Below, in pieces: positions 13,459-53,004 of a stretch of 64,000 bases of DNA. This stretch comes from Chiloscyllium plagiosum (taxonomy: Eukaryota). Positions within the stretch are counted from its first letter, which is position 1; every line of letters begins with the position of its first letter. The notes beneath the pieces are model-generated. The model did no database searches and was not told where the DNA came from. It saw only the letters and a list, made by a program, of their open reading frames with translations. Both the position numbers and the translations under genes were made by a program. The stretch lies in NCBI RefSeq assembly GCF_004010195.1, contig NC_057718.1:42006444-42070443 (forward strand), in the 5' to 3' direction.

Positions 13459-15016
13459 AAATGAAATTTCCAGTTCAGTGAGCAAACCTACATCTGTGGA
13501 TCTCATCAAATTCACCATCAAAATGGCACTTACCTTCCCCCTCCGTCCTGGTCTTCATTCCAGTCATTTTCCAGTTGCATTTCACATTAAGAGAATGGCA
13601 AATGATGGCAAGGAACATAGCTCAGGGTAGACACCATCAGTATTGGGCTCTGCCTTGTCATCAGGTATTTCCCTGAAACCTTCATGTTCCCTTTGATCTT
13701 GCACAACCCCGACAGCCCATTTCCACTCACCACTCTCTAATGTGGAGACCCAACACATCAAACTTCACCTTTCACTGTCCTTCCTGTCGCAAGAACTCTG
13801 ACATTACACATTAAGAATGTCCACTCTGTTCCCCATCGCATTCCTTATGGAGGCCAAGGTAGTGGCCAATGTCAATAATACCCCTCCCAAGCCTACTGTG
13901 CCTTCCAATGAGGTTCTGCTTACCTTCAAGCCACCTTGAGCTTTCCCCCACCTCAATGTACTTGCCCCACTTCTACGCAAATCTTATCTTTTCTCTGTCA
14001 CCACTCACCATTCCTCACCACACAGTTCAGTGGATGGGCCCCAAGGCTCCACAACTCTGACCACCTTCAATATCATGTGGGACTGACTAGACTCTTGATC
14101 AATGACATATAATTCCTCCAACTGCTTGTGCTGGCCCTACACCACTGACTGGTGTCCACTGTGAATGAGGAGGACTATGTGCAGACTGTGCCTGTGACTG
14201 ATCGTGTTGAGACCTTCTGATAGAAAGCAGTCCCCCGTAATTGGAGTGAAGACTAACCCTCACCAGTTTCTGACATGACCATTTGGTTGAATACAGTGCA
14301 GTGTGTTTGCTACACAAGTAGCTGGCACATGCTGTCGCTGGTAGATTGAAGTCTCGATGTATCATTCATAAATATGAGCCCCTCCACCTCAACAAGCTCT
14401 TAATGACACGCAACTTGTCTGTATGCCTGCACAAAAGAGCCTGTCAACACAGCAGTGCTGGTAGCTCTTGGGTCTCGGAGTCACTAATACGCCAACAAGC
14501 AAGTCAAAGCAAAGCAAGACAAGACAAGACTTGAATACTGCAAACATGGAGGTAGATGCTAAGTGAGTGATAAGAAAGCAAACAAGTAGCCTTGAAATAC
14601 AGCCTGATTCAATTCATGAATGAGGGTGCAAGTCTGTGCGCATAAAGTGTCCTTGCTCCAGTTTTTTTGCTCCAGAGCACCCTACATTGCAAGTTTATTC
14701 TTCTTGAGTGGCTTACACATGGATTGGAGAAGTCTTATGATGGTCATGAAACATTGGCAAACATTGGATGCCAATGTCTGTGAATGAGATGTACATGCTG
14801 CTTTGCCCATAGATTATGCCCAGAGCTGCTGTTTACTGCTGAGCTACACGGAGGCTCCTCACAGCCAACAGTGATCTGAAGTCATCAGATATCTGCTCTG
14901 TGTCCCATGGTGAGAATTCTCAAAGGAGAAAGTGAGGACTGCAGATGCTGGAGATCAGAACTGAAAATGTGTTGCTGGAAAAGCGCAGCAGGTCAGGCAG
15001 CATCCAAGGAGCAGGA

Positions 15017-15054
15017 GAATCGACGTTTCGGGCATGAGCCCTTCTTCAGGAATC
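15017..15054 (-). ncRNA. Minimal type I hammerhead ribozyme
   Basis: Minus strand reads ATTC-CTGAAGA-A-GGGC-TCAT-GCCC-GAAA-CG-TC-GATT. The catalytic core is complete. Confidence 0.8.
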
Positions 15055-15061
15055 AGATTCA

Positions 15062-15097
15062 ATTCCTGAAGAAGGGCTCATGCCCGAAACGTCGATT
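15062..15097 (+). ncRNA. Minimal type I hammerhead ribozyme
   Basis: ATTC-CTGAAGA(15066-15072)-A-GGGC-TCAT-GCCC-GAAA-CG-TC-GATT. Predicted cleavage is after GUC at 15093. Confidence 0.8.
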
Positions 15098-17275
15098 TTC
15101 CTGCTGCTTGGATGCTGCCTGACCTGCTGCGCCTTTCCAGCAACACATTTTCAGCTGAGAATTCTCAATGTCTAGTTTGTTTGGTGTGTTTGATTAATAA
15201 GGTTTTTAACAAGCTATATTGCCCTTTAACTGGCAATTCGCCACTGCCTAGCAAGAAATGAATAAAACAGCCAGCAAAGTGCTTCCAATAGCAAAAAAGG
15301 CCTTCTGCCAGAACTGTCACCAGAGCTTATATTGCTTAAGTCCCCATAAGATTCCACACCTAATATTCTTTGAGTGAACATTCTTCTTTTCCATTGTGTC
15401 TCTGTGAAAGGTCTTGCAGCTATTTTTACAGTAAAGACACCGTCTAAATACAAACTCATGTTGAACATCTATTAATTACAATATTTTCTGTTTTCATTTT
15501 AGATTGCTGGCATTGGCATTTTCTTCTTTTTTATTATACAAGTCATCTTATCTGACAGCAAGCTTTATTCTCTTAGCTGGTCACAGACAGCTCTGACATT
15601 GAAATCATAGAGAAGTCTATAGCTGCTCATTGCATTCCCCTCCCCATGAACATCCATTCCACTCTACTTAGTAAATGGTAATATTGTGGCAAAGGCTTAT
15701 ATAATAAAGAAAATTGAAGAGGAATCAAGTCAAAGTGTAAGCTTCTTATTCTCACCACTGTCAAACATCGCTTTAGCATCAGAAAAATGGTCATTAAAAT
15801 TATAGCACTCGAAGCCTGCACATCAGTGTTTTGCCTTTCCAGTGAACAGCAGATGGGAACCAAAAAATGTTCACAATGTTGTGATGTGATTTAAATCAGT
15901 TGATGCATTTTGATTGCACAACTAAAAATTACTCCTTTAAAACAGCAGAATTTGTTGTTCAAGTCTTAAGTCAGTCTTTAACAGTTAATTTAGAAAAAAA
16001 GTAACATGACCAAACTGTTCCATTTTGGAGCGACACAGAGCTTGCTGTGCCCATTTTATGTTCCCATTTAATGAAGCTGTTAAAGCAGCAAGAATGACAG
16101 GTTAATTATCCTTTATGAAAGTGGGACAAATTGAACTGTGTCTTTCCATCATTTTTTGATATATCAAGAAGCTCCTGAGGTGCTCAGCCGTCACTCTGGT
16201 GAATACAGCAACTAATCCACTCCACTATTCTCTCTTGACCTGGGTCTCACCAACAGGGGTTTGCAGTATATTGCAGCAGTTTTTGTTTCACATTCAACAG
16301 ATTTCTCTTTATTATGAATTCCAAAAGATTTTTTTTTGAACAGCCATCCATATGTTGGTTGACAGCTCCTGAAATAACTGATGGCTAAATTTAAACTATG
16401 ATGAAAATTAACCCAAGTGTTAAATGCAAACAGACCTGTTCAGAAGAAACCTATCGTGGCAGATGCCAAACAGTCAAAAAATTGTGTAAATTAATGGAGC
16501 CTCACTGGTGACAAGCTGTCAGCAGGTTTGATGGCTTGTGCTTGTGCTTCAGTCCCACAGAACTTGGCCAGAGGGCAGCGTGGACAAGTCTTGTGTTTGA
16601 AAAGACCACGGGAAGCTTGACAGTATTGTTAACTAGATCATCAGCAGTTCATGGTCATAAAGGAATGAATATTCTACAGCCTGCATCAAATATATTTTAG
16701 AATTCATTACATTTTTCATTATTAACCTACATATCTACTGAACTGCTTAATGTAATAATACTGTTTTTAAAAATAACCAAATTTTACACTGGAACTATTT
16801 CATCTTATTTTGACAGAATAACACTCGATACAGAAATTATTCTTTGTTGGCATGGATTCCCTCTGACTGTTATTGTAAGCATCACATATCTCATCAGGTT
16901 ATTAGTTTAAACTTTAATATTTCCAGTACACTGGAACTCACATCTCCCAATCAAACTATATTCTTCACTCAGAACTTGGCGGAAAGATAGCATTGAACAA
17001 TTCAATATATTAATTACGTATTCAACAAAGAATGGTTGCACCTTATCAAAAGCAAGCAATGCTAAAAATGAATGAAATGTACCTGTTATAGATAGAGGAT
17101 TAGTCATTGGACTAGGGAAGAATGGCACTGAATTTTCATGTACCAAATAGATATCAAATCTTCATATATCACAACATAACAGAGAAAGAGGCAATAAAAA
17201 AGAATGAAGAATAAATACCCCTATATTGAAATTGCTACTGCAGAGCTATTTTATGTGAATAAACCTGTTTGAAGG

Positions 17276-20014: not shown

Positions 20015-20347
20015 TAGAATACCTAGAGTATGGGAACACGTCCTTCAGCCCAACAAGTCCACACTGACCCTCTGAAGAGTAATCCACCTAGATCCATTCT
20101 ATTACTCTACGTTTCCCCTGACTAAGGCACCTAAGCTACACATCCCTGAATACTATGGGCAATTTAGCATGGCCAATTCACCTAACCTGCAAATCTTTGG
20201 ACTGTGGAAAGAAACCAAAGCACCCGTAGGAAACACATGCAGAAACAGGAAGAATGTGCAAACTCCACATAGACAGTCGTCCGAGGCTGGAATTGAACCC
20301 GGGTCCCTGGCACTGTGAGGCAGTAGGGCTGAGACACCATGCCACCC
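20015..20347 (-). mobile_element. HE1-like SINE
   Basis: Reverse complement of the 32245 copy, with A- and B-box-like head; more diverged. Confidence 0.9.
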
Positions 20348-23940: not shown

Positions 23941-24917
23941 GCCGCTTGTGAAGTGGATAAAAGATGGCATGAGTTGTTTTCAATGTCAAGATGGGCCTAA
24001 CCAGATATCTCACCCAACTCTGCCACAAATCTCATCATAGTCCATGTCATTCACAGCCTTAAAGGTTTCCACCCTATTCATCTGAAATGACATAAATTTA
24101 AGGGTCACTCAAGGTGAAAGAGGCCAAGAGGTGGTTGTTGGTTGCGGGTAGTGTTGTAAGAAATGTGTGTAGTTACTGAAAGTGGCAGCACTGATTAATA
24201 AAGACTTAATAGTGGATGAGAAGTCCTGGGTGGTATAAATGGAGCAATAGGGTATGATTTTCTGAAACTTTGGAGGCAGGTTTGGGGATGTTGGTCTGAG
24301 GAAAATGGAAAAATGTACATCAGATCAGGATTCTGACACAACGCCACCCCCACGTGGCTTTTCTGGGAGCAGATTGAGAATACAAAGGGAAATTCACATG
24401 GTTGAGGCAAGAAGACAATTGAAGTTGTTTGGAAAGTCATTAGAGACACATTTATCCACAAATTTCATCTTTGTCAACAGAACATGGGCTCCATGGAAGA
24501 GGCAAAAGGAGGATTTTATTTAATCAAACTGAGGATTTGTTCGTCTAAAGAGCGCCAGTCCTGGCCATTGACAGGCTGCTGGTTAAAGCATTTCTCTGCT
24601 CAGAAAATGCCATCACTTCTTGTCAGGTGACTGCCAACTTCTTAGAAGACATTTCACCTTTTCAGGCATTCCAGCCGTCTTCAGACGCATTTCCATGCTG
24701 CCATTCTTCACACAGGACATTATATTATACAACTCTATATTTCACCCCCACTGAGGGACAAGGGCAGGGAGCTCACTGCTTCTGAAAGTTGCAGCAGCAG
24801 CAGCAGTTGTCTTCTTCTCAGATATATGCTCTTCTGCAGAGCAGTGGGGATGGACATTGAGACTCAGCCAGAATGGAAAGAAATCCCCAGCACAGGGTCT
24901 ACAGGCAGAGATTCAAT

Positions 24918-25050
24918 ATATTTCCTGATGAAGGGTTTTTGCCCGAAACATCGATTCTCCTGCTCCTTGAATGCTGCCTGACCTGCTGTGCTTTTCCAGT
25001 ACCAAACTCTCAACTCTAATCTCCAGCATCCGCAGTCCTCAATCTCAGCT
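24918..25050 (+). mobile_element. Single-arm PLE-derived mini-element with a hammerhead at about 24922-24956
   Basis: CTGATGA-A-GGGT-TTTT-GCCC-GAAA-CA-TC. 11-bp TSD AGAGATTCAAT at 24907-24917 and 25051-25061. Confidence 0.8.
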
Positions 25051-25539
25051 AGAGATTCAATCTCTGAACATCAGCATCTAGGGAGGTTTGGACTCCCATG
25101 ACAGGTCATTGATAACAACTGCAGTCACCTAAAAAAGACCAGACAGACATGCATTGTCAACGGCTGATAGGGGTCCAACACTGAAGAGCTATCACATCAC
25201 CTAGTCCCTACCACCTCACTTCTCTTCCTTTTGCCAAATGGTGCCTGTCTTTTCCTACAAGGCAAGAAAAGCAGGTCAATGTAAATGTGCATAATTGCTT
25301 GTCTATTGCTATTTGTTCAGGGTGACTGTGAGGCTTGGAAGCAACAAAGCCATCAGCTGGGGTCATTGAGCTTGTTGGCTATTGAAATGGGAATGCGAGG
25401 ATTTGCAGACAAAGGAATACATAGAACCGCAAACAATACTCTTCTGAAAAGTGCTGTGCATTAAAATACCAGGAAAGACAGAGTCTGGAGAATTAATATC
25501 TGAAAGTGTTACGTTATTCATTTGTGTAGCCTTCCTATG

Positions 25540-26585: not shown

Positions 26586-28339
26586 TGTTTTTTTTAATCC
26601 AATAATTTCTCAAGCCAACATCATTTTTTGTTTTAGATCAAACTCTTTCTATCTTCATGATAACTTTCCACATTCTGTGAGTCAAGTAATAATAAACACC
26701 ACTAATAGTATGCAAATGACTTATGGTTCAGGCACCGTGAATTATAATGGTGCTTCACCGGTTTCATTATCCACTCCACTGGATTCTCAATTTAAGTTAC
26801 TCAAGAGTCACTGCAAAAGTTAGTCTCACACTGTTTCACTTCACACTAGTCTCAATGTTTGACAGTCAATTTAGGATCTGTGAAAAGCTGGAACTGCTCA
26901 ACATTGATGTTAAACTTGTGTGAATGCACCATAAACTTCTTGATGATATACCTCTTAAAACTATTTTGTTTTTGAAGCTTTAGTCATGAGTGGTTTATTT
27001 TAAACAAGTGAAGAATGCTAATATTACTTGAGGCCATAGATGACTTCCCGAGACAATGTCAATACTGTTATTCTAAGTGTTCCTACAGGCTGCACCTGAC
27101 CTGTGAGTTCAAATGCACTCAGTTTTCAGCATTGTTTTTATGCCTAACAAGGACAAACAGGTTATTTGTTTGTAATTTCTCCTAAAGAATAATCATTAAT
27201 TTTCTAATACTCTGATTGTTGCAGCTCAGCTCAATTGAGTATACCTCATCCAGATTACTCCTGTGGGGTGGTTGTTGGGCTGTGTGTTGACAGGTTTATT
27301 TATTATGTTTTCCCCAAACAGACATGTTATTTTCATCAAGCTGTTGCTTGCTTTAGGTTCCTGCTTTCAAATGAAAGTAGTTCTGTCATCACATGAATGT
27401 TGTTTGTTTCGCTGAAGTCTGGCTGTGCATTGAGCAAACACAGCAGATGGGAATATGACAGTAATATATGTTTACAAGTACTGTTGGTGACTATTCTCTG
27501 CAGGTTGACAGAAGTGACTAAAGGATGCAGTACAAAGTGTCACCAAGCCGCTGCATAAGTGATGCTTTCCCAGACATCTCAGAAACCAGAGCACACCAGT
27601 AAACTGTGGGGGTTTTGTTAAAAAAAAAATTCTAGTGTATAGGATTAAAATAAATGTAAGAATATAGTGAAGTTAGAGGTAAAGATAAAGGAGCATAATG
27701 ATTGGATGATGGCCATTGACAAATCTCTGAACAAAATTTACTGTTATACATCTGTTTTTTGAAAAGTAAAGCCAATCACAGCCAGTAAAGGAAAACTAAT
27801 TTCACTACATAATGAGAGAAGGATAAACATATACTGAATTATAATCTTCTAATTTTGATACTCAAAGCTGATATAAGTTTAATCTAAATTCACAAAAATC
27901 TTTGGGCTGCTGAAATAAAATTAATTGCAACATTTTTCATTCATTATTCCTGAATCTTTTAACCTATGTTTTTATACAATGTTGGTGAAGGTGGTCTAAC
28001 TAACTAACTCCAGGCACTTCTTTTATGTTTGCAAGGAAAATTCTATTTTCACAATGAAACATTGATTGAGTAATAACACCATTTAAAATGTTCATAAATG
28101 TGGGTCACTTACCTTTTGCTTCATAGCTTTCATTCTGTGAATGATATTTGTCTTCGTAAATGGTGAATAAACCCTGAAACTCGGAAATTACATCACCACT
28201 TTCCTGTTGAGATTTCCCTATATTAGAATGGACATTTGCATTCTGCACACAGCAGAATCCCACCTCATATGTGACATTCTTTACTTTCTACTATCAGAAG
28301 AGTTTGAGATGAAAGACCATGGGCATCTTCTGGAAGAAG

Positions 28340-28556
28340 CTGAAAATGTGTTGCTGGAAAAGCGCAGCAGGTCAGGCAGCATCCAAGGAGCAGGAGAATC
28401 GATGTTTCTGGCATGAGCCCTTATTCCCGTCGTAAGAAGGGTTCATGCCCGAAACGTCGATTCTCCTGCTCCTTGGATGCTGCCTGACCTGCTGCGCTTT
28501 TCCAGCAACACATTTTCAGCTCTGATCTCCAGCATCTGCAGTTCTCACTTTCTCCT
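28340..28556. mobile_element. Fold-back PLE-derived mini-element, family 1
   Basis: Inverted arms. TSD ATCTTCTGGAAGAAG at 28325-28339 and 28562-28576. Hammerhead cores are partly mutated. Confidence 0.88.
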
Positions 28557-28985
28557 AGAAGATCTTCTGGAAGAAGGCTTGTCACCCAATACTTTTCATT
28601 TAAATTATTTTTTAGGCAAGCACCATTTAATTATACACCAAGATAATACATTATGAGATCCAATCATGTAAACTTGATAAGTTAAAACTGCAAACCATCA
28701 TATGTCTGAGATGTAAGCTCTAGGTTTTTGCTTGACTCACATTGAGTTTAAAAAGAAATTGCAATAATTGAATTGTTTTACTTTTAATGTGATCTTGACA
28801 TTAATAAAGCTCTCTGTATAAACTGCAAAATGTTAAATAGAAAGGAGTCTTTTATATACTTACATTTGAAAAGAAAAGAGTGCCGAGCCAACCTACTTTG
28901 TTGATCATCTTTTGTATTCCACAGCTTATGGTTTCAGCATAGTGTCACTTCTTGGCAGATGAAAAGCTGCCTATATGGGATTTAG

Positions 28986-29083
28986 AGCTGGAAATGTGTT
29001 GCTGGAAAAGCGCAGCAGGTCAGGCAGCATCCAGGGAACAGGAGAATCGACGTTTCGGGCATAAGCCCTTCTTCAGGAAAGGG
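28986..29083 (-). mobile_element. Single-arm PLE-derived mini-element with an intact hammerhead (29044-29079)
   Basis: Minus strand reads TTC-CTGAAGA-A-GGGC-TTAT-GCCC-GAAA-CG-TC-GATT. TSD ATGGGATTTAG at 28975-28985 and 29084-29094. Confidence 0.85.
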
Positions 29084-32000
29084 ATGGGATTTAGCCAAAC
29101 ATGAAGTGTGTTCTATCAAACTGATCAATTAGTTTGCTGATCCAAGCAAAAAAGAAAAGCTTAAATCTCAGACATATTGTTAAATTCTGATATTACGGGT
29201 TTAAAATGTAGTCTTGACATAACTTCTGCATTGATGAAGTGCCTTTTGTCCCTACTTGGAGTCCCTCACTTCTAAACTGTAGGAACTAAAATCTTTTGAT
29301 GCTTTCTGATGATCCATTCGGTATCTTTATTTTTACTCAAGGACATAAGCAACTGAAGGAACTTTCAACATATTAATAGGTAGTTTAAGACACCTTGATA
29401 TTTAAATAGTGGAAAGTATTTTTCCACCAGAAATGGTGAATATGAAAAATATGTCTGCTCAACCTCTTTAGTAAACTGGGACTGAAAGATAGTTTAAGGA
29501 AAAAAATAACAGGCTGCAGGTAAATAACTGCCTGTGTTCATAATGGGCCACAATATGTCAAGGATATAGATGTCATTCCTCCTAGAGAAGTATTTCATGT
29601 TTAATATGATCTGAACAAATCTTTTGTTAATTTTGTTAAATTTGCTGAATATTTGACATTTTTGATACCTCAATATCTTGTCAGAAATTTCCATTGCTTT
29701 GTCAGGTAACTTTCTAAAATAAATTTGATACAAATAAAAGTAGAACTTGAAATAAAGCTACAAAGTGAATCATTCAGTAACAGTTCTACTTTAATTACCA
29801 TTTGCATTAGTAGTCTCATTATCAGACATAGGTTACATTGTTGCAGTTTACATTTTACTGTAATTATGGAAAGGGTAAAGCTGCAAGAGGTGGAGTACAG
29901 TATAACTTGCTTGGCCTTCATTAATTCCTGTCACCTCTATTATCCAGGACTGTTAAGTGAATCTGCTGCATATCCAGCATGGATTTTTCTGCCTTTTGAG
30001 AACACAGTTATGGGTAGCCATCATTTCCTTGTCCATTAGGCCTTGTATTTGTTTTGAGTTTAAACACTGAATAGACAAGTTTAGATTGAAGATCTTAAGA
30101 ATTATTAAGAATCAAAACAACAGAGCCATGTTCAAATTAATTTCAGAAAAAAAATGAAAATATTATTTTTCTTATGGGATGATGAACATTTCCAACAACA
30201 CTGACAGTGAGTAACATAGTAGTCACATGCTTGTACTAATAAAGAAATGTCAGGACATAAGGTGCTAAGGAGATCATTAGCTCACTGGATGGACAATGAA
30301 AGAGGTCTTAAAGTGTATATTGAAGCTAAGAGGCCAATTAAAGATCTTTGTTAACAATGTTGTCATTTTGTGGGAACTGTAGCCTGGCTACTTCCTGATC
30401 TTCCTCTCCCATTGGAGAGAGCCAGTAACCTCTTGATTCATTAGGGAGTTGATATTATTGTAAAAAACTAATACCTCATCTCAAGTCAAAGAACAATGCT
30501 ATTCTGTATTGTTAATTATCACTGTAAATCCTGATGCTGATGGGAAAGATGTCAGGAAGAGTTGTTCAGCCCGCAGTGCAGCTGCTTGAGCATGTGCAAG
30601 ATACAGAACTGCCTCATGGCTTTTACAATCCAGTTTTAACTGGGGAGATATCGCACAACGACTTTTATATTGCTGCTTTCGGAGGCAAGAAATTGATTTT
30701 GATTCACCTACTGGAGAATCACTTCATATTGATTTTATGCAGGAGTTATTGATATTGTAACTCCCATAGCAACACAAATATATATGCAATCATTTTGAAT
30801 TGTTAAAATTTGATAAATACTAAAATGAAAATTAATTTTTAAAACACAGAACTTCCCATCAACAAATGTTTGTTAAAGGAGTGCATTCAGTTCAATGGGC
30901 TACTTTCTTTTTAAAGATATAAAGATGCAAAGCTTCTAACTGCATCATGAATGCACCTTCCTGTTTATGAGGAATGTAGTATGCTATTTAAATCAAAGAA
31001 TCTATACTGAAAGCAAAAGTTGAAATTCGTTCTGTAAGAAATGAACTGTGTTAAGGCTGATTGGTTGGAAAGAAGATTCTCACCCTCTAGCTGGAGACTG
31101 GCCCGAGTTACCTTCCTTGGAAAGGCCTATCACATTAAATGTCAACAAAGTGGTTGGAAAGGACCTTGGGGTGGATGTCCAGCCCCTGAGAGTTTGAAGA
31201 CAGACAGAGCGTTGGCACCTGCTTGAAACTCATTCACTTGAGGTCCACAATCAGATAGGAACTAAAATCATGTATGAGTCAAGGTCGATTGGGGGTCACA
31301 AGCTGGAGGATAGAGATGGACTGGGAATGGGAGGCAAAGGCAGCTGGTGTGGTTCTCAGTAATTCCCCACCTCGTACTTCCTGTTTCCAGGTCCCTCAGT
31401 CAGACAGTGAGTGACCTGACTATGAGGAATCCACACCCCACCCCATCCTGGAAGTGGACAATCAAGAACAAGGTTTTTTTCTTGCTTTTTTCTACTTTTC
31501 AAATAAAGATGAATTTGCCCATAGGATCACTTTCAACAAAGGAACATTTCAATTTGTATGAACATTATTGCATGCTTAATGAATTGAAGGCATGCTTTCT
31601 GTTGAGTGGGACAATTGGCTACCAAAACCAAATAATCTGCTCACCATGGCAGTGCCATTGAGAACTTCAAAATCAAATTTATAAACATAACTGGCAATTC
31701 TAAACTGTAGATGGTCTAAGGTCTTGAACTAATGGCTGTTTGCTTTTGAAGCTGTTACAGATAGACTGTTGCCTATATATCTACTGTGTGTTTAAAGGGT
31801 TTATAGAATGTTTTCGAGTGTGTCTTGCACACCTTCGTTTAAGAAGCATTCACCATATTAACATTTCAGTGCTAGATTTTTGTGTCCTGTCAATATCTAT
31901 TATGATTTTTCCCAGATATCAAAGATATTTCCTCAAATGTTTTAAAAGTAGTTTCCCACATTAAAATAAAAACCTGTAGCAGGGAAGCAATTTCATCTGA

Positions 32001-32119: not shown

Positions 32120-32244
32120 AGGAGAAAGTGAGGACTGCAGATGCTGGAGATCAGAGCTGAACATGTGTTGCTGGAAAAGTGCAGCAGGTCAGGCAGCATC
32201 CAAGGAACAGGAGAATCGACGTTTCGGGCATAAGCCCTGAAGAA
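32120..32244. mobile_element. PLE-derived mini-element left arm, truncated by a SINE
   Basis: Same sequence as 14924-15040. Ends in CTGAAGAAG directly at the SINE start. Confidence 0.85.
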
Positions 32245-32563
32245 GGTGGCACGGTGGCACAGTGGTTAGCACTGCTGCCTCACAGCGCCAGAGACCCGGG
32301 TTCAATTCCCGCCTCAGGCGACTAACTGTGTGGAGCTTGCACGTTCTCCCCGTGTCTGCGTGGGTTTCCTCCGGGTGCTCCGGTTTCCTCCCACAGTCCC
32401 AAGATGTGCAGGTCAGGTGAATTGGTCATGCTAAATTGCCCGTAGTGTTAGGTAAGTGGTAAACGTAAGGGTATGGGTGGGTTGCGCTTCGGCGGGGCGG
32501 TGTGGACCTGTTGGGCCGAAGAGCCTGTTTCCACACTGTAAGTAATCTAATCTAATCTAATCT
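32245..32563 (+). mobile_element. Full-length, young HE1-like SINE
   Basis: A box TGGCACAGTGG, B box GGTTCAATTCC, CpG-rich body, CR1-like tail, (TAATC)4. Confidence 0.92.
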
Positions 32564-39100: not shown

Positions 39101-41827
39101 TCCTTTAACCCCATTCATGGTGCCTGGTTATTTTACAGTCCAGTGAGGTGCTTTGGAGTATTTTACTACATTAAAGGTACTATATAGGTAAAGGCAACTT
39201 TTGTTGCTGCAATTTTTGTTACTGCTCAAATAAATGCACATTCAAATTACAAACTGCTGAACTTTAACACAATATCAATCAGCACTTTTAAAGCATTGAT
39301 GGGAAATTATTGTCACATGATAATATTGTATGAACCTTCAGTGTGTTTGCATAAAAATCCTCTGTCTGCTATGTTAACAGAAATGCTCAGTGAAACCACA
39401 GGAAAGCACATGGAGGAATTTAATACAAGTATGTTAACATATGTATGAAATCACAATTTCCAGGCCAATATTGCTTCAAAAAGATTGACCCCTTGTGAAT
39501 TCTGGGAAGGATTGGTTTTAAATGTTATTTATATTCCATTGCAGCAATTTGTTTTATGTCCTTAATCAGTGGAATGACTAGAATTTATAAAATTGATCAT
39601 TTAATTACTGGAGACAGTGACTTTGTGATAATGCACTACCTACAGCAGTCTTCTTTATTATATGAAATTAATATTTAAAAATCAGTAATTAACAGGCTAT
39701 ATCTTCAAATAATTATTTATAATTTTATCTGAAATAAACTCTGGCCAGTTTTGGCCATTTGGATTTATTCATTAATGTTAATAACAGAACCAATCTGCTG
39801 TAAACAATATGCATTGCAATCATTTATTTATATCTTTCAATTTGGAAATATTATACCACCAAAAGAAGTTCATGTTTATTTATATTTGGAAGAGTGAAAG
39901 TCCTGTGCATTATTAAAAGAGCATGGGAAGTAGCTGGAAACGTTATATCACAAAGTCACAGTCATAGAGGTCTACAGCACAGCAAAAGGCCCTTTGGCCC
40001 ATTGATTCTGCACCAGTCAAAGACAGCTACCTAACTATTCTAATCTCATTTTTCAGCACTTGGCCCATAGCCTTGTATGTTTTGGCTTCACAAGTGTACA
40101 TGTAAATACAACTTAAATGTTATGAGGGTTTCTGCCTCTACGTCTTTACAGGCAGTAAGTTCCAGATTCCTACCACCTTCTGAGCGAAAAGCAATTTCCT
40201 AATCCTCTAAACTTCCAGCCTTTTCCCTTAAATTTGTGCCTCCCGCTCATTGATTTCTCCATTGAGGGAAATGCTTCTTTCTGTCTCTACTTTCTATGCC
40301 CTTCATGATTTTGTATATCTTGATCATGTCTCCCCCCGCACCCCCCCACCCCTCCCCATCCCACCTCAGTCTCCTCTGCTCCAAGGAAAACAATCCCAGT
40401 CTCTTCATTTTTCTTCATAACTCTCCATCCCAGGCAACATCCTGGTAATCTCCTCTGCATCCTTTGAATGCAATCCCATCTCTCCTATAATGTGGATTCC
40501 AGAAATACACACAATACTCAAGTTGTGACCTAATCAATGTTTAATACAGTTCCAACATAAGCTCTCTGCTCTTAAACTCTATGCTTTCGCTAAAGAAGGT
40601 ATGTATTTCATATGCCTTCTTAACCACTTTATCTACCTTAAGGGACCAGTGGACTGCTGATCCTCAATGCTTCTCACGATTCTGCTATTCATTAAGTATT
40701 TTCTTGCCAAGTGCATCACCTCACACTTATGTGTATTGAATTCCATTTGCCACTGGTCAGTCTGACCAGCCTGTCTACATCTACTTGTAATCTCAGACTG
40801 TCCTCCTCACTATTTACCACCCAATTTTCATTTCATCCACAAACTAATTGATCAACCCTTCTACATTCAAATCTAAATTAGTTACATATACCACAAACAG
40901 CAAAGACTCCAATTCTAATTCTTCCAGAATCCCACTGAATACAGCTTCCAGTCACAAAAACAGCCTTTGACCATCACCCACTGCTTCTTGCCAAATCTGG
41001 ATCCAATTCACAGATCTCCTTGGATTCCATAGGCTCATACCTTCACTGTCAGTCACCCTGCAGTTGCTTATCAAAATCATTGTCGAAATCCAAGTAGACT
41101 ACATTAAATACATTTTCCTTATCTGCACACCTGGTCACCTTTTTGAAGAATTCAATCAAGTTTGTAAGCCATGACCTCCCCTTAAAAAAACTATGCTGAC
41201 TCTTCTTGACTAATCCCTGACTCTCCAAATTCAGATTAATTCTGTCCCTCAGAATTGCCTCAAATAGTTTCCCCCTCACTGAAGTTGCACTGTGGACCTA
41301 TGTTTCCTGGTTTAATCCTTGTTCCCTTTTTGAATAATGGTACCACATTGGCAGCCATCCAGTCCTCTGACACCTCTCCTGTGACCAGAGAGGAATTGCA
41401 AATTATTGCCAGCACTCCTGCAGTTTCCTCCCTTGCATTACTCCATAGCTTGGGATTCATTTCATCTGCACCTGAAGATTAGTTTACCTGTAAACCTGCA
41501 AGACCACTCAGAACCTCCTCTCTATTTATGCTAATTTATTTAAATATATCTCAGGCCTCTTCCTGATTTCTATAATCACACATCCCTTACACAAATGAAC
41601 ACTGACACAAAGTATTCAAACCCTACCTACATCCTCCAGCTCCTTGCAAAAATTACCATTGTGGTCCTTAATGGGCCCTAGTTCATTCCCTAGTTATCCT
41701 TTTACCCTTAATGTGCTTGTAAAATAACTTTGGATTTTCCTTAATTTAACTTGTCATTTTTCTTTCATGCTTGCATTTTGCTCTCCTACTTTCCTTTTTA
41801 AGTTTCCCTTTACAAATTCTGCACTAG

Positions 41828-43427
41828 GAGAAAGTGATGTCTGCAGATGCTGGAGATCAAAGTTGAAACTTTATTGCTGGAACAGCACAGCAGGTCAGGC
41901 AGCATCCAGGGAACAGGAGATTCGACGTTTCGGGCACAGGCCCTTCTTCAGGAATGAGCAGAGAGTGTTCAGCAGGAGAAGATAAAAGGTAGGGAGGAGG
42001 GACTTGGAGGAGGGGCGTTGGAAATGTGATAGGTGGAAAGAGGTCAAGGTGAGGGTGATAGGTCGGAGTAGGATGGAGGCGGAGAGGTCAACAAGAAGAC
42101 TGCAGGTCAGGAAGGCGGAGCCGGGCTGGAGGGATTCGGCTGAGACAAGGTGGGGGGAGGGGGGATGAAGAAACTGGTGAAGTCCAAGTTCATCCCCTGT
42201 GGTTGGAGGGTTCCCAGTCGGAAGATAAGACGCTCCTCCTCCGACCGTCACGTTGTTGTGGTTTGGCGGTGGATGAGTCCAATGACCTGCATATCCTCGG
42301 TGGAGTGGGAGGGGGAGTTAATGGTCATCTTAGTTTCACTTCCTCTTTCATTCTTTCACACATTGATCATTTTATAAGTTTGTCCCCCTTACAACAGCTT
42401 GTTCCTTTTATCTAACTAAGTTCATAGACCTTTATCAAGGTGAGATGGCATCAATAATCAATTGATGCATCTGTTTAAAATCTGCAGTGGCACTTCCTAG
42501 TGATTAACAATTATTGCAATGGATGCGACTTAATGTTGTTCAAAATGTATTAATTTCCTTTTAACATAAGAACCATATCTAACTGGACAGTAACTGTTAT
42601 TATCCATTACAAGTTAACACTCAAAATAACCACAGAAACAAGACCATTCTAAAGCGCACTGAAATGTGACCTGTGTAAAAGCCTTTGTACCTCAAAAGAG
42701 TTTCCTCATTTGTCTTCTGATTAGCAACCATAAACTGTGTCTCTTCTCTTCAGAAGGCTGGACAGAATAGATGAAGGGATGATGTTTCCCCTGGCTGGGG
42801 AACAGAGACCAGAATGAGGAAAACAGTCTCAGGAGAGGTCTTGTTTATGCAGTTGGCAATCTTGGACTCAGTTGAAGAGAAATGTCTTCACTCAGAGGGT
42901 GGTGAAACTATGGAATTCTCTACCACCATTGAAGCCAAGTCCCTGAATATACTTAAGAAAGAAATAGATTTCAAGAGGCTAAACATGTTAAGGATATGAG
43001 GAGGGATTGAGAGTATGGTGGGGTTGTTTGAATGGTGTGTTCCTGAATCTGTTTTCCATATTTCTATGTTACAATGTTCATTTCAGTTAGAAAATAGCAA
43101 TCAAACCATGAACATTAATTATGATCTAGATATGGATATATTCCCTATGGAAGTTATTAAACAACTAACCATAATGTCGGAATATAATTTAATTTCTCAC
43201 CTTGAGCCCAGTCGAAGGAGGGTGTCGGTGGAAGGGTACTGGGTGGTACGGCGGGAAAGGAAGAAGCGGAGTGCTTTGAGTCCTTCGTGATGGGGGATGG
43301 AGGTGTACAGGGACTGGATGTCCATGGTGAAGATGAGGCGTTGGGGACCGGGGAAGCGGAAATCCTGGAGGAGGTGGAGGGCGTGGGTGGTGTCACGAAC
43401 GTAGGTGGGGAGTTCTTGGACTAGTTC
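41828..43427 (-). mobile_element. Penelope-like element (Neptune-like) with its interior replaced by foreign DNA
   Basis: 43200-43425 encodes LPTYVRDTTHAL...LIFTMDIQSLYTSIPH (RT). 42170-42319 encodes EEERLIFRLGTLQPQGMNLDF (GIY-YIG C-terminus). 9-bp TSD CTGCACTAG at 41819-41827 and 43428-43436. Confidence 0.85.
41920..41955 (-). ncRNA. Minimal type I hammerhead ribozyme in the PLE 3' end
   Basis: ATTC-CTGAAGA-A-GGGC-CTGT-GCCC-GAAA-CG-TC-GAAT, with a perfect 4-bp stem I (ATTC/GAAT) and stem II. Confidence 0.85.
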
Positions 43428-43634
43428 CTGCACTAGTCAAAGCATTCTGCTGTTTTGAGCCTTTGGTTTCTGCCATAAGGCTCCCTTTTCCAATTCTGTA
43501 TATCTCTTGATATCCAAGGTTTATTGGATTAGTTGGTTCCATTCTTTATCATTATTGGAACATGTTGGCCCGATGACTCTCTCTTTTTCCTACTTGATGT
43601 GTCCTTTCGCTCTTACACAGATTTAGTTTAAAGT

Positions 43635-43868
43635 GAAGCACAAACAGAAGTTGCTGGAGATACTCAGCAGGCTTGGCAGCATTTGTGGAGAGAAAGCAGA
43701 GCTAATGTTTCAGATCCAGTGTCTTAGAAACTCAGAAGGTCTGGCAGCATTTGTGGAGAGAAAGCAGGGTTAATGCTTCAGATCCAGTGACCCAGACCTG
43801 CTGAGTTTCTTCAGCAAATTCAGTATTTGTTTCACATTTATAGCATTTGCAGTTCTTTGCTATTTGTT
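43635..43868. mobile_element. PLE-derived family 2 insertion (tandem plus inverted arms)
   Basis: TGGCAGCATTTGTGGAGAGAAAGCAG...TTCAGATCCAGTG occurs twice, followed by an inverted CCTGCTGAGTTTCTTCAGCAA arm. Related to 9654-9816. Confidence 0.7.
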
Positions 43869-44533: not shown

Positions 44534-44562
44534 AGTCTTCATCTCTTCTGGAATGTGATGAT

Positions 44563-46140: not shown

Positions 46141-48793
46141 GACTTACATTAAACTGCTAGAAAAGTCAATTTAATTTTATGAACTTTTAGTTAATATTTT
46201 ATGTGTTTTTTGAATGATAACTATTTTTGTACATTAAATAAACTTGTATTTAGAACTTCTGGAGAAAATTGCCTTACCCTAACACTGCTAGAAAGTCAGA
46301 CATTTACAGGATTTAAAAAGAGCAGGGACAGAAAAGAAAAGGTAATTTTGTATGAGACTGTAAAGTTCTGAAGAGTTAATGCTAAGGAGTACATTAAGCA
46401 CTGGCCATGATATTTATATCATTTGGACTCAGGCAGTGAAACAACTTAGGACCTTAAAGGAGTAAGAAGACATAACATTGAGGTTTCCCTCTGTCTTGGT
46501 AGCAATGGCTATCATATCAATATAATTTGTACCTAGTTGCTATCATGTAATAATCTAAAGATTATTTAAGACAAGTGTCCCTTCTAGTTTTCCTCTGCCA
46601 GATAAGATCAAACAGGAAAGAAACTGATGACAACATTCTACCAGATGCACCTTACACCACGATGAGCTGTGGTGAGTATCCATTACACAACATAAAGGGC
46701 TGATAACCACCAGTTTATGACCTATCAAGCTGTTTGGTCTTAAAAGAGCACTGCTCCTAAGACTATAGCTAAATTATTATCACTTTTCATTAAAGTAAGA
46801 GGGAGGCAGAAACATAACTGCCCATAGTAAATGCTCAATAAGGGGGATCTCTACTTATTAGTGCAGTACTCCCATTGTGTGACAAAATCTCAGCAGAGTA
46901 GTATCTAGCACAATAACACAGAAACCAAGACAGAAGGCTCACATGAGCTGTACTTCTCTTAAAGCAGAGGCTGCTGAAAATAGTTTGAGTGGTGCTGAGG
47001 AATATACAGCTACGATGATTGGAGAGTCATGGGCCAGGAATTCCATGCAAGTAAAAGGTCACTGGATTCAAAACATCATCTCTGCTTTCTCCCTCCACAG
47101 ATACCACCATGTTGGAGTTCTCCAGCATCCACAATAGTATGAGTGGATGACTTCACACTAATCCACATTATGGTCCATCTGCCGCATTCTTATTGATTCA
47201 CTCAACCCGTCTCTTTGTATTCTCCTCAGAAGCCATATTCCCACCAAGTTTTGTATAACCGCAAACTTGAAAATATTACAATGCTCCCATAACAAAATCA
47301 TTGACATGAACTTTGAATAGATGGGGACCAAAGCACAGATCCTTTTGGCACCACATGGCTCAGCGTGCCAACGTAAAAATAACCCATTTATTTCTTCCCT
47401 TTGTAGTCTGCTAATTAGCTCATCCTGAGTTCATGCTAACATATTGATCCCAATCCCATGTGCTATAATTTAGTTACTAACCTTTTGTCATCAAAGGGTT
47501 TCTGAAAATTCAAATACACCATGCATACTGCCTCTCCAGTATTGATTCTGCTAATAACTTGCTCAGAAAACTCTGTCAGGTTTTCTAAAAATGTTTTACC
47601 CTTCAAAAATTCATATTGATTCTGTATAATCAATTATTTTCCAAATATCCAGTAATGGCATCCTTCAGAATAGATTCCAGTACTTCCCCAACTACTGACA
47701 TCAAGTTAGGTGTCTGTTGTTCCCTATTTTGTCTCTCCCTTCTTTCTTAAACAGTGTGGTTACAGCACATATTTGATGGACTGAAGAGCCTTTTCCTGTG
47801 CTGTGGACCTCTAAGACTCTGACTATGACAATGCATCCACTATTTCTGTAGATGTGTCGTTCATCACTCAAGGGTGAAGTCATCATGTCACAGAGATTTG
47901 TGAATTTTCACTCCCATTATTTTCTTCAATTCTGTTCTTCTACTAAATTATTTTAGTCCCTCACTCTCACAAAACCGTTGGACTTTAATTATTTCAGAGA
48001 GATTTCTTGTATCTTCCTTAGTAAAAACAGATACAAAGTACTCATTTAGCTTCTCTGTCAATTCTTTTTGCAAATTCTGCTATCTTTGCCTGTAATATGC
48101 TTGCATTTGTTAACCTTTGCCTTTTTACAAATTTATAGAAGCCTTTGCAATCCTTTTCTATGTTACTTGCTATTTTATGTTCATATTCTATTCCCTCTGT
48201 CTTTTCTAATTTCTTTGGCTTCCTTTGTTGAATTCTATATTTTTCCCAGTCCTCAGGCTTACATTTTTTTCGCAACTTTATAATCCTGCTCCATTGATTA
48301 AATTCTTTAACTTCCCTTGTAACTTATGTCTCTCTCACTTTTCCTGCTGGGTATTTTTGTCTTTGGAGAATCAAGTGTTATTCTTTAAATACTAGCAATT
48401 GCATATCTATTATTATCTCTTTTAATGTATTTTTCATACCACATCAGCCAAATTCCTCCTCATACCTTTTTGATTGCCTTGTTTTGACGTAACATCAATG
48501 TTTGAGATTGAGCTGTATCTTTATCTTTATCAAATATAGTAGAAATTTCTATTATACCGTGGTCGCTATTCCCTTAAGGTTCTTTTACAACTAGATTATT
48601 AATTATTCCTTTATCGCTGCATAATACTAGATCTAAAATAACCAGTCCCTGAGTTGGTTCCTCAAAATGTTGGTGCAGAAAACTATATCAAGCAAATTTC
48701 AGGACATCTTTCCCTACAGCATTGGTGCTTATTAGATTTATCCAATCTATATGTAGATTGAAATCACTATGATTACTGTATTCCTTTTGCAAC

Positions 48794-49591: not shown

Positions 49592-49948
49592 GGGGGCAGC
49601 ATGGTGGCTCAGTGGTTAGCACTGCTGCCTTACAGTGCCAGGGACCTGAGTTCGATTCCAGCCTTAGGAGACTATCTGTGCGAAGTTTGCACATTCTCCC
49701 TGTGTCTGTGTGGATTTCATGCAGGTGCTCCGGTTTCCTCCCACAGTCCAAAAATGTGCACGTTAGTGAGTTGGCCATGCTGAATTGCCCATAGTGTTTA
49801 GGGATGTGTAGATTAGGTGCATTTGTCCTGGGAAATATAGAGTAATAGGATAAGGGAAAGGGTCTGGTTGGTATACTCTTCGGAAGCTTAGTGTGGACTT
49901 GTTGGGACAAATGGCCTGTTTCCACACTGTAGAGATTGTATGATTTAT
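49592..49948 (+). mobile_element. HE1-like SINE
   Basis: Homologous to the 32245 copy. Confidence 0.9.
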
Positions 49949-50325: not shown

Positions 50326-50517
50326 TTCTGCTTCTCAGGTTACTGATCGATGAAGGTATCTTTGAGAGAGCTATTTTTCAGGCAGTTTTTAAAATATGCT
50401 GCTAGCTTGGCAGTTCTCCTCTCAACTATTCAATTTCCCCCAGTCTTATACCCCCAAAGCATTGGATAGTGTAATCGGCTTTTAAGATTGTCAATAAATT
50501 AAATCCAAACTGAATTA
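50326..50517 (-). mobile_element. Partial second copy of the 48794 LTR
   Basis: About 190 bp highly similar to 49080-49270. Ends at the start of a SINE. Confidence 0.85.
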
Positions 50518-50840
50518 GGGGCGGCATGGTAGCTCAGTGGTTAGCACTACTGCCTCACAGCTCGATTCCCACCTTGGGTGACTGTCTGTGTGGAGTTTGC
50601 ACATTCTCCCCGTGTCTGCATGGGTTTCCTCTGGGCGCTCCGGTTTCCTTCCACAATCCAAAGATGTGCAGGTCAGGTAAATTGGCCACACTAAATTGTC
50701 CATAGTGTTAGGTGCATTAGTTAGGGTTAAATATAGGGTAGAGGAATGGATCTGGGTGGGTTACTCTTTGGAGGGTCAGTGTGGACTTGTTGGGCTGAAG
50801 GGCTTGTTTCAATACTGTACAGAATCTAATCTAATCTGAT
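50518..50840 (+). mobile_element. HE1-like SINE
   Basis: Homologous to the 32245 copy, with a small deletion in the head and an (AATCT)n tail. Confidence 0.9.
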
Positions 50841-51888
50841 CTCTTTTTGCTTCCCATAACCAGCTTTGTTTTTATTCCATTTGAATTCATGTCCCCACAC
50901 CTTGACAGGCTAGTTTAATCTCTCCTGACAACACTCACAAATATTTCCATAAAGATGTTACTCCCAGCCCTCCAAAAGTGTAATCAGTCCTCCTTGCGCT
51001 TGAAATCTAAAGTCTTCTTCTGCACCATTTTTCAAGTCACATGTTTATTCACTCAATCTTCCTTTCTCTATTCTCAACAGCAAGTCACACTGGCGGTAAT
51101 CCTGAGATTACTTCTTTGAGGTCCTGTATTACAGTCGCTTGCCTGGGTCCCAACATTCTGCTTTCTCATCTCTGTTTCTACCTATGTCAGGTGTGCACAT
51201 GTAGACCATGACCTTGGAGTTTCATGACCTCTAATGCTTTCCACAAGACATGCTGAGGTCCATTGTTTCCCTGGCCCAATACAATCTGTCCTCTCTAATT
51301 ATCATTGCTGCTGTTGCTTCAGCTACAGGCTTAGGAGCACTACTCTCTCAGAAGCAAAACAGTCAGATGTCATAAATCAGTGCACTGTGCCACAAGACAT
51401 TGTTGGACTCAGTGTGCAGTCATAGAGAAGGTGGCCCTGTTGGTTACATGAGCGAGAGATTTTTAGACTAAATCCTTGGCCTCTAAGTGTTCATTGTGCC
51501 CGTAAACAAGGAGTCTCCCTACTAAATGAGGAAAGGTTGGTAAAGGTACCTCCAGAAATACAGAAATTGTGACTGCCTTATGTGATTTCCTCTGAGACGA
51601 TATATGTACAGGGAAACATTATAAATGTAAGACTTAAGATGTGCTCTCTAGAGCTACAGCCCACTGTCATACTCAGCATGATGTGGAGATTGTCCCTGAA
51701 GTTGTGTTATATACACAGGCCATGTCAGCGTAATGGTCAGCAAGCCAAAATAGGCTCAAACAAATCTGGCAGGAAAAGCAGAGCAGACTCTTAACTTTCG
51801 TAACAAGATATAGTTTGTTGTATTTCAGTAACTAAACACAGATAATACTAACAGGCACACTAACTATTACTAAGAAAAGGTAGAGGTA

Positions 51889-53004
51889 GAGAAAACACAC
51901 ATGCCTGTATCAGGTGACTGGCAGATTCCAAGTGATACTGTACCAAGAGGCTATGAGATATCATCAGGCTGTACAGAGCTCAGCATAACTCAAACAGTAA
52001 TTTTTTTCTGAACCATTCCCTTGTTCAATATCTCCCTTAAGCTTTGTTTCCTTTAGCTAATCTATTACACAATCCCGTGCATAACTGTATAACATTAACC
52101 AATATCCTACTATCCTATGGTTTCTGACTTCACAAATTCAAACAGTGCACAATATTCCCAAATACATGCATTTTAGATTTAGAAGATTAGCATGCCTTTG
52201 CTTTGTAGAGATTGACCTTCCTTGTAGACATTGTTGGTCCATTATCTCACCTGGAGACCCTTTAATTTTATGATTGTCCATCATGGAGGACAGAGCTGAA
52301 AATGTGTTGCTGGAAAAGCACAGCAGGTCAGGCAGCATCCAAGGAACAGGAGAATCAACGTTTCGGGCATAAGCCCTTCTTCAGCCCGAAACGTCGATTC
52401 TCCTGTTCCTTGGATGCTGCCTGACCTGCTGTGCTTTTCCAGCAACACATTTTCAGCTCTGATCTCCAGCATCTGCAGTCCTCACTTTCTCCTCCCCATG
52501 GAGGACAATTGTACAAGTGAAACAGACACTTCCTTTTTTGTCCTATCCCGGATTTATGAAGAGGGAAATCTGTTTCCAATTGGAAAAGGTAGTCTCGCTT
52601 TTATGGTATCCTGGATTGTTAGAGCAGACAGCTTCTTCTTTGGGATCTTTCCCTGGATATGCCGCTTAACACCCTTGAGATGTTAATGATGCTGACATCT
52701 TCAGTTACCCTTTGTGATTGTTTGAGTTGTGAAATGGACTTTTCCAAATTCTTTTAAATATTTTACCAAATGGTAGCTCAGCTGCAACCCTGTCGCTAGC
52801 ATTGATTGCTTTGTTTTATTAATGTGTTCGGCAGACTGTTACATTATATGGACAACTTCAGTTGAAAGGTGGCAAATGAACTTCAGAAAGAATTATTGCT
52901 TGAGCTATGCTGAGCTCTGTTCAGTCTGATGATATCTCACAGCCTCTTGGTAGAGTATCAGTTGGAATCTGCCAGTCACCTGATACAGACATGTGTGTTT
53001 TCTC
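51889..53004. repeat. Inverted repeat pair of about 124 bp (51889-52012 / 52882-53004)
   Basis: GAGAAAACACACATG.CTGTATCAGGTGACTGGCAGATTCCAA.TGATACT.TACCAAGAGGCT... and its reverse complement. Confidence 0.9.
52293..52496. mobile_element. Fold-back PLE-derived mini-element, family 1
   Basis: Inverted arms. Minus-strand hammerhead at about 52352-52384 (GUU triplet). TSD CATGGAGGACA at 52282-52292 and 52497-52507. Confidence 0.88.

Follow-up and report, generated by a model that had tools for sequence, protein, structure and literature searches.

Minimal hammerhead ribozymes (min-HHRs) are carried in the terminal repeats (pLTRs) of metazoan Penelope-like elements (PLEs). As described by Cervera and De la Pena (2014; PMC4209133), they combine a type I core lacking helix III with an extra nucleotide after A9, a G10.1-C11.1 pair, and palindromic positions 15.2-16.2, and they occur mostly as single motifs from truncated PLEs, with some opposite-strand pairs and several families per genome. 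That study puts the copy number in the thousands for fish, coelacanth, and frog. Studies of EN+ PLE insertions have described inverted pLTRs, a tail, and target duplications (Arkhipova 2013, PMC3846280; Craig 2021, PMC8557442); Frangieh (2024, PMC11167929) tied a 30-40-bp tail to two RT start sites, with both strands cut, and found cleavage to be dispensable for insertion in vitro. Non-LTR retrozymes, as set out in a preprint by Li, Clavereau, and Pollet (2026, bioRxiv 10.64898/2026.07.22.740005), are non-coding, hammerhead-bearing sequences derived from PLE pLTRs and built as tandem units that each hold a complete hammerhead; dispersed monomers are common, and the one chondrichthyan genome sampled was reported to contain them.

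Seven loci in the window, the 64-kb stretch of shark DNA analyzed here, carry 10 related arms of 90-130 bp each and occupy 1,132 bp, or 1.8%, at a density of about one locus per 9 kb (Table 1). The preliminary description had reported at least seven related hammerhead modules; the related loci lie where it placed them, but the number of modules was an overcount, because only 6 of the 10 arms, at 5 of the 7 loci, keep both core boxes. Its view that this is a very abundant PLE-linked hammerhead family holds. The arms are real but belong to an already described kind of sequence, dead PLE end-pieces with all or part of a hammerhead. Our main reading, to which we assign a probability of roughly 0.85, is that they are the 3' terminal repeats of related Neptune-type PLE subfamilies of the shark, stumps left by insertion that are decaying neutrally.

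The shark arms share with min-HHRs the core features and modes of occurrence listed above, and all four emergent traits given for that class in PMC4209133 are matched in part or whole. Among the differences, helix II has 4 bp here and 7-8 bp in the Schistosoma families, the shark is not among the hosts named in the text examined, and one locus per 9 kb, if it held genome-wide, would far exceed the 4,000-9,000 motifs reported. With the retrozymes of the preprint text the arms share a non-coding, hammerhead-bearing nature, derivation from PLE pLTRs, and frequent dispersed monomers, but none of the seven loci is built of tandem units.

Table 1. Coordinates of the arms, their target duplications, and the PLE remnants in the window
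Feature	Position	Strand	Remarks
Long arm (hammerhead, body, and 35-nt tail)	14924..15053	-	C3 15049; predicted cut between 15022 and 15021; helix I 3/4
Short inverted arm without tail	15062..15156	+	C3 15066; head-to-head with the 14924 long arm, 8-nt spacer
Target duplication, 13 bp, exact	14911..14923; second copy 15156-15168	.	Target, as reconstructed, a 12-bp palindrome
Single arm, diverged subfamily (CTGATGA, loop TTTT)	24922..25041	+	G16.2 lost; 11-bp target duplication 24907-24917 / 25051-25061
Head-to-head pair, neither core intact	28337..28556		Short arm 28337-28426 (-), long arm 28434-28556 (+)
Target duplication of the 28337..28556 pair, 15 bp	28325-28339 / 28562-28576
Single short arm, intact core	28986..29079	-	C3 29076; helix I 2/4; 11-bp target duplication 28975-28985 / 29084-29094
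Long arm cut within core, with a few bases of inverted arm	32120..32245	-	Target duplication: none found
tRNA-type SINE adjoining the 32120 arm	32246-32545
Long arm, sister subfamily	41826..41955	-	Loop CTGT; perfect 4-bp helix I; C3 41951; AATAAA in body
Exact 9-bp duplication flanking the whole 41826-43421 unit	41819-41827 / 43428-43436
PLE 3' UTR and last ~50 endonuclease codons (42322-42170)	41956..42322	-	Contains one stop in frame; lacks the GIY-YIG motif; 61% identical to P0054 across 51 aa
Unrelated DNA (~880 bp) replacing ~360 codons (RT catalytic motif, thumb, zinc linker, GIY-YIG)	42330..43205	.
RT fragment, probably of a Neptune-type PLE	43206..43436	-	~72 codons, no YIDD motif
Head-to-head pair	52293..52493		Short arm 52293-52384 (-), core kept, helix I lost; long arm 52384-52493 (+), starts in stem II
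Target duplication of the 52293..52493 pair, 11 bp	52282-52292 / 52497-52507

A descriptor requiring the exact core and a stem II of at least 4 bp matched the window 6 times; across 30 dinucleotide shuffles the mean was 0.03 and the highest count 1. The min-HHR core, CUGANGA ... GAAA ... UH, is present in 6 of 10 arms; it is cut or mutated in both arms at 28340, in the 32120 arm, and in the right arm at 52293. The sequence variation reported earlier was all recovered: stem II GGGC/GCCC, which takes the GGGT form in the 24918 arm and the 28340 right arm; GAAAC; loop II as TCAT, TTAT, CTGT, or TTTT; and CTGAAGA alternating with CTGATGA, the latter in one of the six intact cores. All six have the unpaired nucleotide that separates position 9 from 10.1 and the G10.1-C11.1 pair. 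None has a helix III, and 15.2-16.2 is palindromic in five, the C15.2-G16.2 palindrome at 24925 having been lost through a CpG change. Helix I, which has 4-5 bp in published min-HHRs, is complete (4/4) only at 41951, with 3/4 pairs in both arms at 14924, 2/4 at 29076 and 24925, and 1/4 at 52384; pairs are fewer where the 5' strand is truncated, and helix I of the main short family contains a U.U mismatch. Two unrelated PLE families within the window have the same core with different paired stems.

An Rfam search of the whole window at E values up to 1 returned no hammerhead family and six sub-threshold miRNA or snoRNA matches; because the motif lacks helix III, the missing hammerhead match is not counter-evidence. 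For the 41.9-kb arm, the predicted structure of lowest energy is the hammerhead skeleton, and the dimer in its predicted active fold is 5 to 13 kcal/mol less stable than at its minimum. Folding z-scores for six arm segments (-0.8 to +0.5) were no better than those of shuffles. Scanning metagenome contigs for a 20-nt pattern turned up 17 loci, all of them chance matches of 20-29 nt without arm homology, and ARAGORN found no tRNA genes.

Exact target duplications of 9-15 bp flank six of the seven loci; among 3,000 random pairs, a match as long as 9 bp arose only 6 times. Measured from C3, the 3' ends of the arms fall at +125 (five arms), +90/91 (four arms), and +116 (one arm), giving two fixed 3' ends 35 nt apart; the full arm consists of the pLTR and a 35-bp tail. 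The commonest loose ends in the read data include 14924/14925 and 14964-14969. Four loci have a single arm and three are head-to-head pairs in which one arm carries the tail and the junction is different each time. The earlier description of the arms was incomplete in missing their nature as insertion stumps, the target duplications, the tail, the one-off nature of the inversions, and the fact that the class has been known since 2014.

At three loci the arms form long inverted repeats flanked by target duplications, and Rfam gave only sub-threshold miRNA matches and no hammerhead, as would be expected if the palindromes were MITEs or miRNA-like hairpins with an incidental likeness to hammerheads. 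The asymmetric ends, differing centers, and four single-arm loci tell against this, as do an arm that follows a PLE endonuclease and a core far above chance (0.03 expected), and we consider it extremely improbable. MITE identity, tried as a candidate, is contradicted by the PLE coding link, and the loci lack fixed symmetric terminal inverted repeats and a fixed structure.

The anatomy compares closely with that of EN+ PLE insertions (PMC3846280, PMC8557442, PMC11167929), in which head-to-head inversion, a 35-nt tail on one arm, target duplication, microhomology or filler at junctions, capture of unrelated DNA within the element, and the lack of RNA ends at the hammerhead site are likewise seen. 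Unlike those insertions, most of the present ones consist of the pLTR end alone, truncated at the hammerhead. The targets look palindromic, an observation made post hoc, whereas PAc in those studies prefers AT-rich targets.

The link to PLE coding DNA is provided by the 41.9-kb copy, whose core at 41951 lies about 220 nt past the endonuclease C terminus. The terminal-repeat position within a PLE is therefore observed for this subfamily; for the short arms it is probable by homology. This arm had been described as attached to RT and GIY-YIG coding sequence, and the attachment to an endonuclease C terminus stands, but the GIY-YIG motif is absent and the RT piece lies 880 bp further upstream behind unrelated DNA. 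That DNA had no protein match among 139 and no second copy in the window. The RT and endonuclease pieces were identified through homolog searches, the RT piece being 84-86% identical to a Chiloscyllium punctatum protein; Pfam, run on six window translations, gave E = 0.078 for the RT piece and no match for the 32-aa endonuclease piece. Arm translations, which would have matched if the pLTR overlapped an ORF start, had no counterpart among the 139 proteins. Of the 78 homologs longer than 750 aa, 69 have a CX2-5CxxC zinc linker ahead of GIY-YIG, as does the shark protein P0054; the corresponding region is missing from the window copy, and the linker is also shared by Nematis (PMC8557442).

The further claim that this copy identifies the autonomous partner is not borne out: it belongs to a sister subfamily and is decayed, with about 360 codons replaced and a stop in the endonuclease tail, and it has no intact open reading frame with an RT catalytic motif and GIY-YIG. 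It gives the partner's class, probably a Neptune-type PLE, not the partner itself. A full-length element bearing the arm of the short family was not encountered.

The earlier suggestion that the source elements were selected for RNA structure turned on whether core positions vary as much as loop positions among subfamilies. They do not: among three arm subfamilies, the 11 fixed core positions showed 0/22 changes against 5/8 in loop II (P = 0.0004). The same comparison with the non-ribozyme part of the arm (23/179) was not significant (P = 0.08), and a stretch of 18 nt beyond the ribozyme shows no more variation than the core. The case for selection thus rests on the fast loop, the two unrelated PLE families with one core and different stems, and the literature. 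Loop II and position 7 vary among subfamilies and in reads from three organisms, with the core unchanged between subfamilies. Among the variants listed from reads and contigs, the best supported were in loop II (52-85%), at N7 (9-37%), and at CpG sites (5-17%), and rarer core variants may exist besides; CpG sites within the core decay, G12 and the palindrome doing so at CpG rates. Two T>C sites were enriched on one read strand, for which A-to-I editing was considered; subfamily variants explain them equally well.

Arm sequences were found in 3,737 of 12,955,460 records of raw RNA reads from a poly(A) single-cell library with the same species label. Both strands are represented (peak bin, 1,533 versus 1,018), and 96% of the reads pass from the arm into unlike sequence. 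It could be supposed from this plentiful RNA, and from the six arms that keep both core boxes, that the genomic copies are working ribozymes that cut host transcripts. We regard this as very improbable: full helix I occurs in 1 of 10 arms, helix III is lacking, a head-to-head transcript is predicted to form a -191 kcal/mol hairpin that buries the core, and G12 and the palindrome decay as CpG sites do. Read starts and ends did not pile up at the predicted cut site, a weak result from one poly(A) single-cell library. Single min-HHRs remained uncleaved in vitro (PMC4209133), and so did 8 of 9 Xenopus dimers in the retrozyme preprint.

The 5' ends were taken from the alignment. All nine short-family arms start between C3-4 and C3+16, and 5 of 5 arms of a second family start at about -3 to +12. 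Ordinary 5' truncation would predict a looser clustering than this one within the hammerhead, and the cited PLE papers do not account for such tightness.

Such starts might mean that the short copies descend not from truncated full-length elements but from a separate non-autonomous RNA, about 130 nt long, mini-PLE or retrozyme-like and beginning at helix I, that was trans-mobilized by a Neptune-type protein. The short arms agree with one another at 91-99% and with the 41.9-kb arm at only 84-91%, they do not have the AATAAA found in the latter, and head-to-tail joints of the 130-nt unit occur in 18, 20, and 2 contigs and in 1 read, a joint of the poly(A) library that is also present in DNA contigs. 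However, these joints make up a minute share of 106,120 and 111,696 contigs, the window has no head-to-tail tandem of the arm family, RNA starts and ends do not pile up, and the sequence beyond loose ends at 15053 is often PLE-like UTR, where an RNA-read consensus matched 41956-41985 at about 25 of 30 positions by eye. A strong RT stop at the hammerhead would yield the same pattern, and we think a discrete RNA unlikely.

Under our main reading, of pLTR stumps left by PLE insertion, the repeat of the source element would encode a minimal type I hammerhead with a 4-bp helix I, a 4-bp helix II, and an extra A after A9, in which an ACGU palindrome would stand in for helix III; judging from published work, cleavage may be possible only as a dimer or with protein help. 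By analogy with the systems cited, the PLE protein would cut both target strands 9-15 bp apart, and reverse transcription would start at either of two RNA sites, 90 or 125 nt past C3. The cDNA would mostly halt at or inside the hammerhead, one cDNA leaving a single arm and two leaving an asymmetric head-to-head pair with a one-sided tail and a new junction each time. Inserted copies would then decay neutrally and be transcribed only as passengers of host RNA.

With the class known since 2014, the window adds one shark family. No published description of it was found in the literature searched, to which Repbase/Dfam and subscription journals were external, and paper supplements may list sharks. 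Repeat annotation is affected, because the stumps resemble MITEs or miRNA hairpins. Because its insertions number about one per 9 kb and have sharp ends and target duplications, this family is material that would allow a genome-wide count of cDNA stops relative to the ribozyme and of endonuclease cutting preference. We offer as a speculation, more doubtful than not, that the hammerhead sets the 5' boundary of shark PLE cDNA, either as the start of a discrete, SINE-like RNA of about 130 nt or as a folded, perhaps dimerized, ribozyme that halts RT and pairs templates, so that a dimeric endonuclease cutting a palindromic target would yield two cDNAs joined head to head. If so, PLE hammerheads would gain a structural, non-cleaving role and would rank, in a vertebrate genome, among the most numerous repeats derived from ribozymes, leaving natural insertion records by the hundreds of thousands.

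The hammerhead arms of this window are real, and their kind is already known. All seven loci of the preliminary description were recovered, resolved into 10 arms of 90 to 130 bp. Eight of these form a main family with 91 to 99% mutual identity in the arm alignment; the arms at 24918 and 41828 (loci are named by start position) are 82 to 91% identical to the remainder. Read in ribozyme sense, an arm comprises the 5' strand of helix I, CUGANGA, an extra A, and a 4-bp helix II capped by a 4-nt loop, followed by GAAA, CG, UH, the 3' strand of helix I, a body of about 60 nt, and an optional 35-nt tail. A hammerhead descriptor (exact core plus helix II) scanned across the window found six sites, versus 0.03 in dinucleotide shuffles (n=30), and five versus none in 30 shuffles when the CG palindrome was demanded. 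An intact core is missing from 4 of the 10 arms, and loci 28340 and 32120 contain none, so that the seven loci exist but "seven hammerhead modules" was an overcount. Helix I is complete at one of the six core-bearing sites, and an Rfam search of the window did not find the hammerhead family.

The preliminary description classed the arms rightly as hammerheads of Penelope-like elements (PLEs): the 41828 arm adjoins a 3' UTR and the C terminus of a PLE endonuclease. By most testable features they are the same as the minimal hammerhead, lacking helix III, of PLE terminal repeats in the available text of PMC4209133, one searched supplement of which contains no shark names. They fall outside the tandem definition of the non-LTR retrozyme in the accessible part of bioRxiv 10.64898/2026.07.22.740005, where tandem elements are reported in one chondrichthyan. 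A literature search for the shark arm family found no paper describing it.

Within the window the family accounts for 1,132 bp, at a density of one locus per 9 kb. Contigs matching the 14924 arm numbered 106,120 in one DNA run from the window's own organism (14,391 leave the arm into other sequence), 111,696 in a second organism (16,518 leaving), and 10,821 in a third; in the first two, nearly all matches lay on the arm and hardly any on its flank. These totals are not copy numbers, but they show that the family is very large in at least two organisms. A single contig from the second organism crosses from flanking DNA into 23 nt of the 14924 arm and carries 17 substitutions over 442 nt; this insertion is therefore older than the split of the two organisms.

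The 41828 copy, previously proposed as the autonomous partner, is not autonomous. Its arm comes after the 3' UTR and the final 51 codons of the endonuclease (61% identity to homolog P0054, one stop). A reverse transcriptase (RT) piece is 84% identical to homolog P0001 over 77 aa; its nearest named proteins are from Chiloscyllium punctatum (86%), Stegostoma, and Mobula, which marks the host as a shark. Between the two pieces, 880 bp with no match among 139 proteins and no other copy in the window stand in place of about 360 codons, among them the RT catalytic motif, the zinc linker, and GIY-YIG. This insert, which begins at a GT resembling a splice donor, may be captured host sequence, as described within PLEs in the available part of PMC3846280, or a later replacement. 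An exact 9-bp duplication (10/11) bounds the whole unit, and the RT and endonuclease pieces are therefore probably one damaged insertion. We call the element putatively Neptune-type from the zinc linker of its full-length homologs, not from a tree; the linker precedes GIY-YIG in 69 of 78 homologs over 750 aa and is a mark of Neptune and Nematis in the text seen of PMC8557442. Judged by sequence, the 41828 arm is a sister subfamily of the short family (the main family of short copies), from which it differs at three loop positions, in a perfect helix I versus a U.U, and in the presence of AATAAA. The consensus of RNA-run loose ends at 15053 resembles the UTR of the 41828 copy (about 25/30 by eye), and the 41828 type is therefore common. 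The shark PLE RT piece also shares 97% identity with P0005, a database protein labelled Proteus mirabilis, whose record probably contains host contamination.

Features of the window
Feature	Position	Remarks
Palindromic or near-palindromic reconstructed target	14924	arms 6 bp
Palindromic or near-palindromic reconstructed target	24918	arms 8 bp
Palindromic or near-palindromic reconstructed target	28340	arms 5 bp
Palindromic or near-palindromic reconstructed target	52293	arms 5 bp
RT piece, 41828 unit	43436-43206	
Insert, 41828 unit	42330-43205	
Second PLE-end family	9660-9818, 43634-43839, 47054-47105	core identical, helices I and II not; decayed; includes a partial tandem with inversion and a head-to-head pair bearing a 12-bp duplication with a single mismatch
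Poseidon-type PLE	11807-13508	decayed; RT and endonuclease; hammerhead at 13422; no zinc linker seen; inverted tailed arm at 5' end; 12-bp exact target duplication
tRNA-type SINE (presumably HE1-like), six copies	1-203, 20139-20346, 32246-32545, 35850-36164, 49599-49931, 50523-50819	copy at 32246 adjoins a PLE arm precisely at its inversion junction
LINE fragments (presumably CR1-like)	59561-63965	one ORF with GDSL esterase domain; 489-N run near 60.3-60.8 kb

Exact direct repeats of 13, 11, 15, 11, 9, and 11 bp flank six of the seven loci, a length of 9 bp being attained by 6 of 3,000 random pairs. Arms end 3' at C3+125 (n=5), C3+90/91 (n=4), or C3+116 (n=1), numbered from core position C3. 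At three loci a long arm faces a short one head to head; a fourth, 32120, shows the onset of an inversion that gives way to a SINE. Inversion junctions differ at every locus; the inversions were therefore made at each insertion, not copied from a palindromic master. The insertions match the published PLE pattern, an inverted 5'-truncated copy with a 30- to 40-bp tail at one end (PMC8557442 and PMC3846280, in the parts available). Tail-to-tail joints of long-arm to short-arm ends (14925-14927 with 14961-14964) and, rarely, units of 130 and 92 nt joined head to tail occur in contigs of three organisms.

All nine short arms start between C3-4 and C3+16, and all five second-family arms at about -3 to +12. 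The cDNA thus ends on the 5' side of the hammerhead, 25 to 30 nt upstream of the predicted cut site, and the template therefore spans an uncut or religated site. Such ends would result if the RT were firmly halted there, or if the template were a discrete short RNA. According to the portion seen of Frangieh et al. (PMC11167929), PLE protein in vitro cuts both DNA strands and reverse transcribes from two internal sites set a tail's length apart; the hammerhead cleaves only with protein present, insertion works without cleavage, and RNA-seq reads have no ends at the hammerhead site. Inverted repeats of at least 5 bp per arm occur in four of six reconstructed targets versus 13.5% of random sites (summed p=0.0015), a pattern noticed before testing, with n=6 and targets reconstructed from filled sites. 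The 5'-end clustering and the palindromic targets are leads that the cited papers, in their available text, leave unsettled.

Energy minimization folds the 41828 arm into the hammerhead skeleton, and no arm folded better than its own shuffles. The computed active dimer lies 5 to 13 kcal/mol above the dimer minimum, and a head-to-head locus is predicted as a single long hairpin with both cores buried. Among 12,955,460 RNA records, 3,737 fall on the arm, on both strands, and 96% continue into unlike sequence; in this sample, drawn from roughly 2% of a single poly(A) single-cell run and poorly suited to ribozyme ends, there was no site on the arm where many molecules begin or end. The arm RNA points to passive transcription. 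Variant shares in RNA reads depend on strand at 14955, 14993, and 15024-15030 (T>C 30% versus 12%, 19% versus 6%), and CpG changes differ roughly twofold from one strand to the other; this could stem from editing, from a mutation bias linked to transcription, or from the expression of a few loci.

When the 41828 and 24918 arms were each compared with 14924L, the long arm at 14924..15053 (-), changes numbered 0/22 in the fixed core, 1/16 in helix II (a G-U wobble), 5/8 in the loop, and 23/179 elsewhere. Across these three subfamilies the core is thus less variable than the loop (p=0.0004), and the loop differs from the rest (p=0.002). Among the 25 arm rows listed, drawn from sequences that passed an 80% likeness filter biased to conserved copies, ribozyme variants fall in loop II (52 to 85% at one position), the free core position N7 (9 to 37%), CpG positions C11.1, G12, C15.2, and G16.2 (5 to 17%), and helix I position 1.3 (2 to 19%); no non-CpG core position is among them, with 63 further variant rows beyond those listed. 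Two other PLE families have an identical core on stems unlike those of the short family: one, with its core at 9790 (-), pairs helix II over 5 bp and has both sides of helix I altered, and the other, at 13422 (+), has a 7-bp helix II directly after a Poseidon-type ORF located by translation, independently of the motif. The fast loop, the unchanged core, and these stems favor the proposed selection for RNA structure in source elements, but the core differs from the remainder of the arm only at p=0.08. The pattern fits source elements under constraint whose inserted copies then decay neutrally, as Cervera and De la Pena have already reported for PLE hammerheads (PMC4209133, in the text available).
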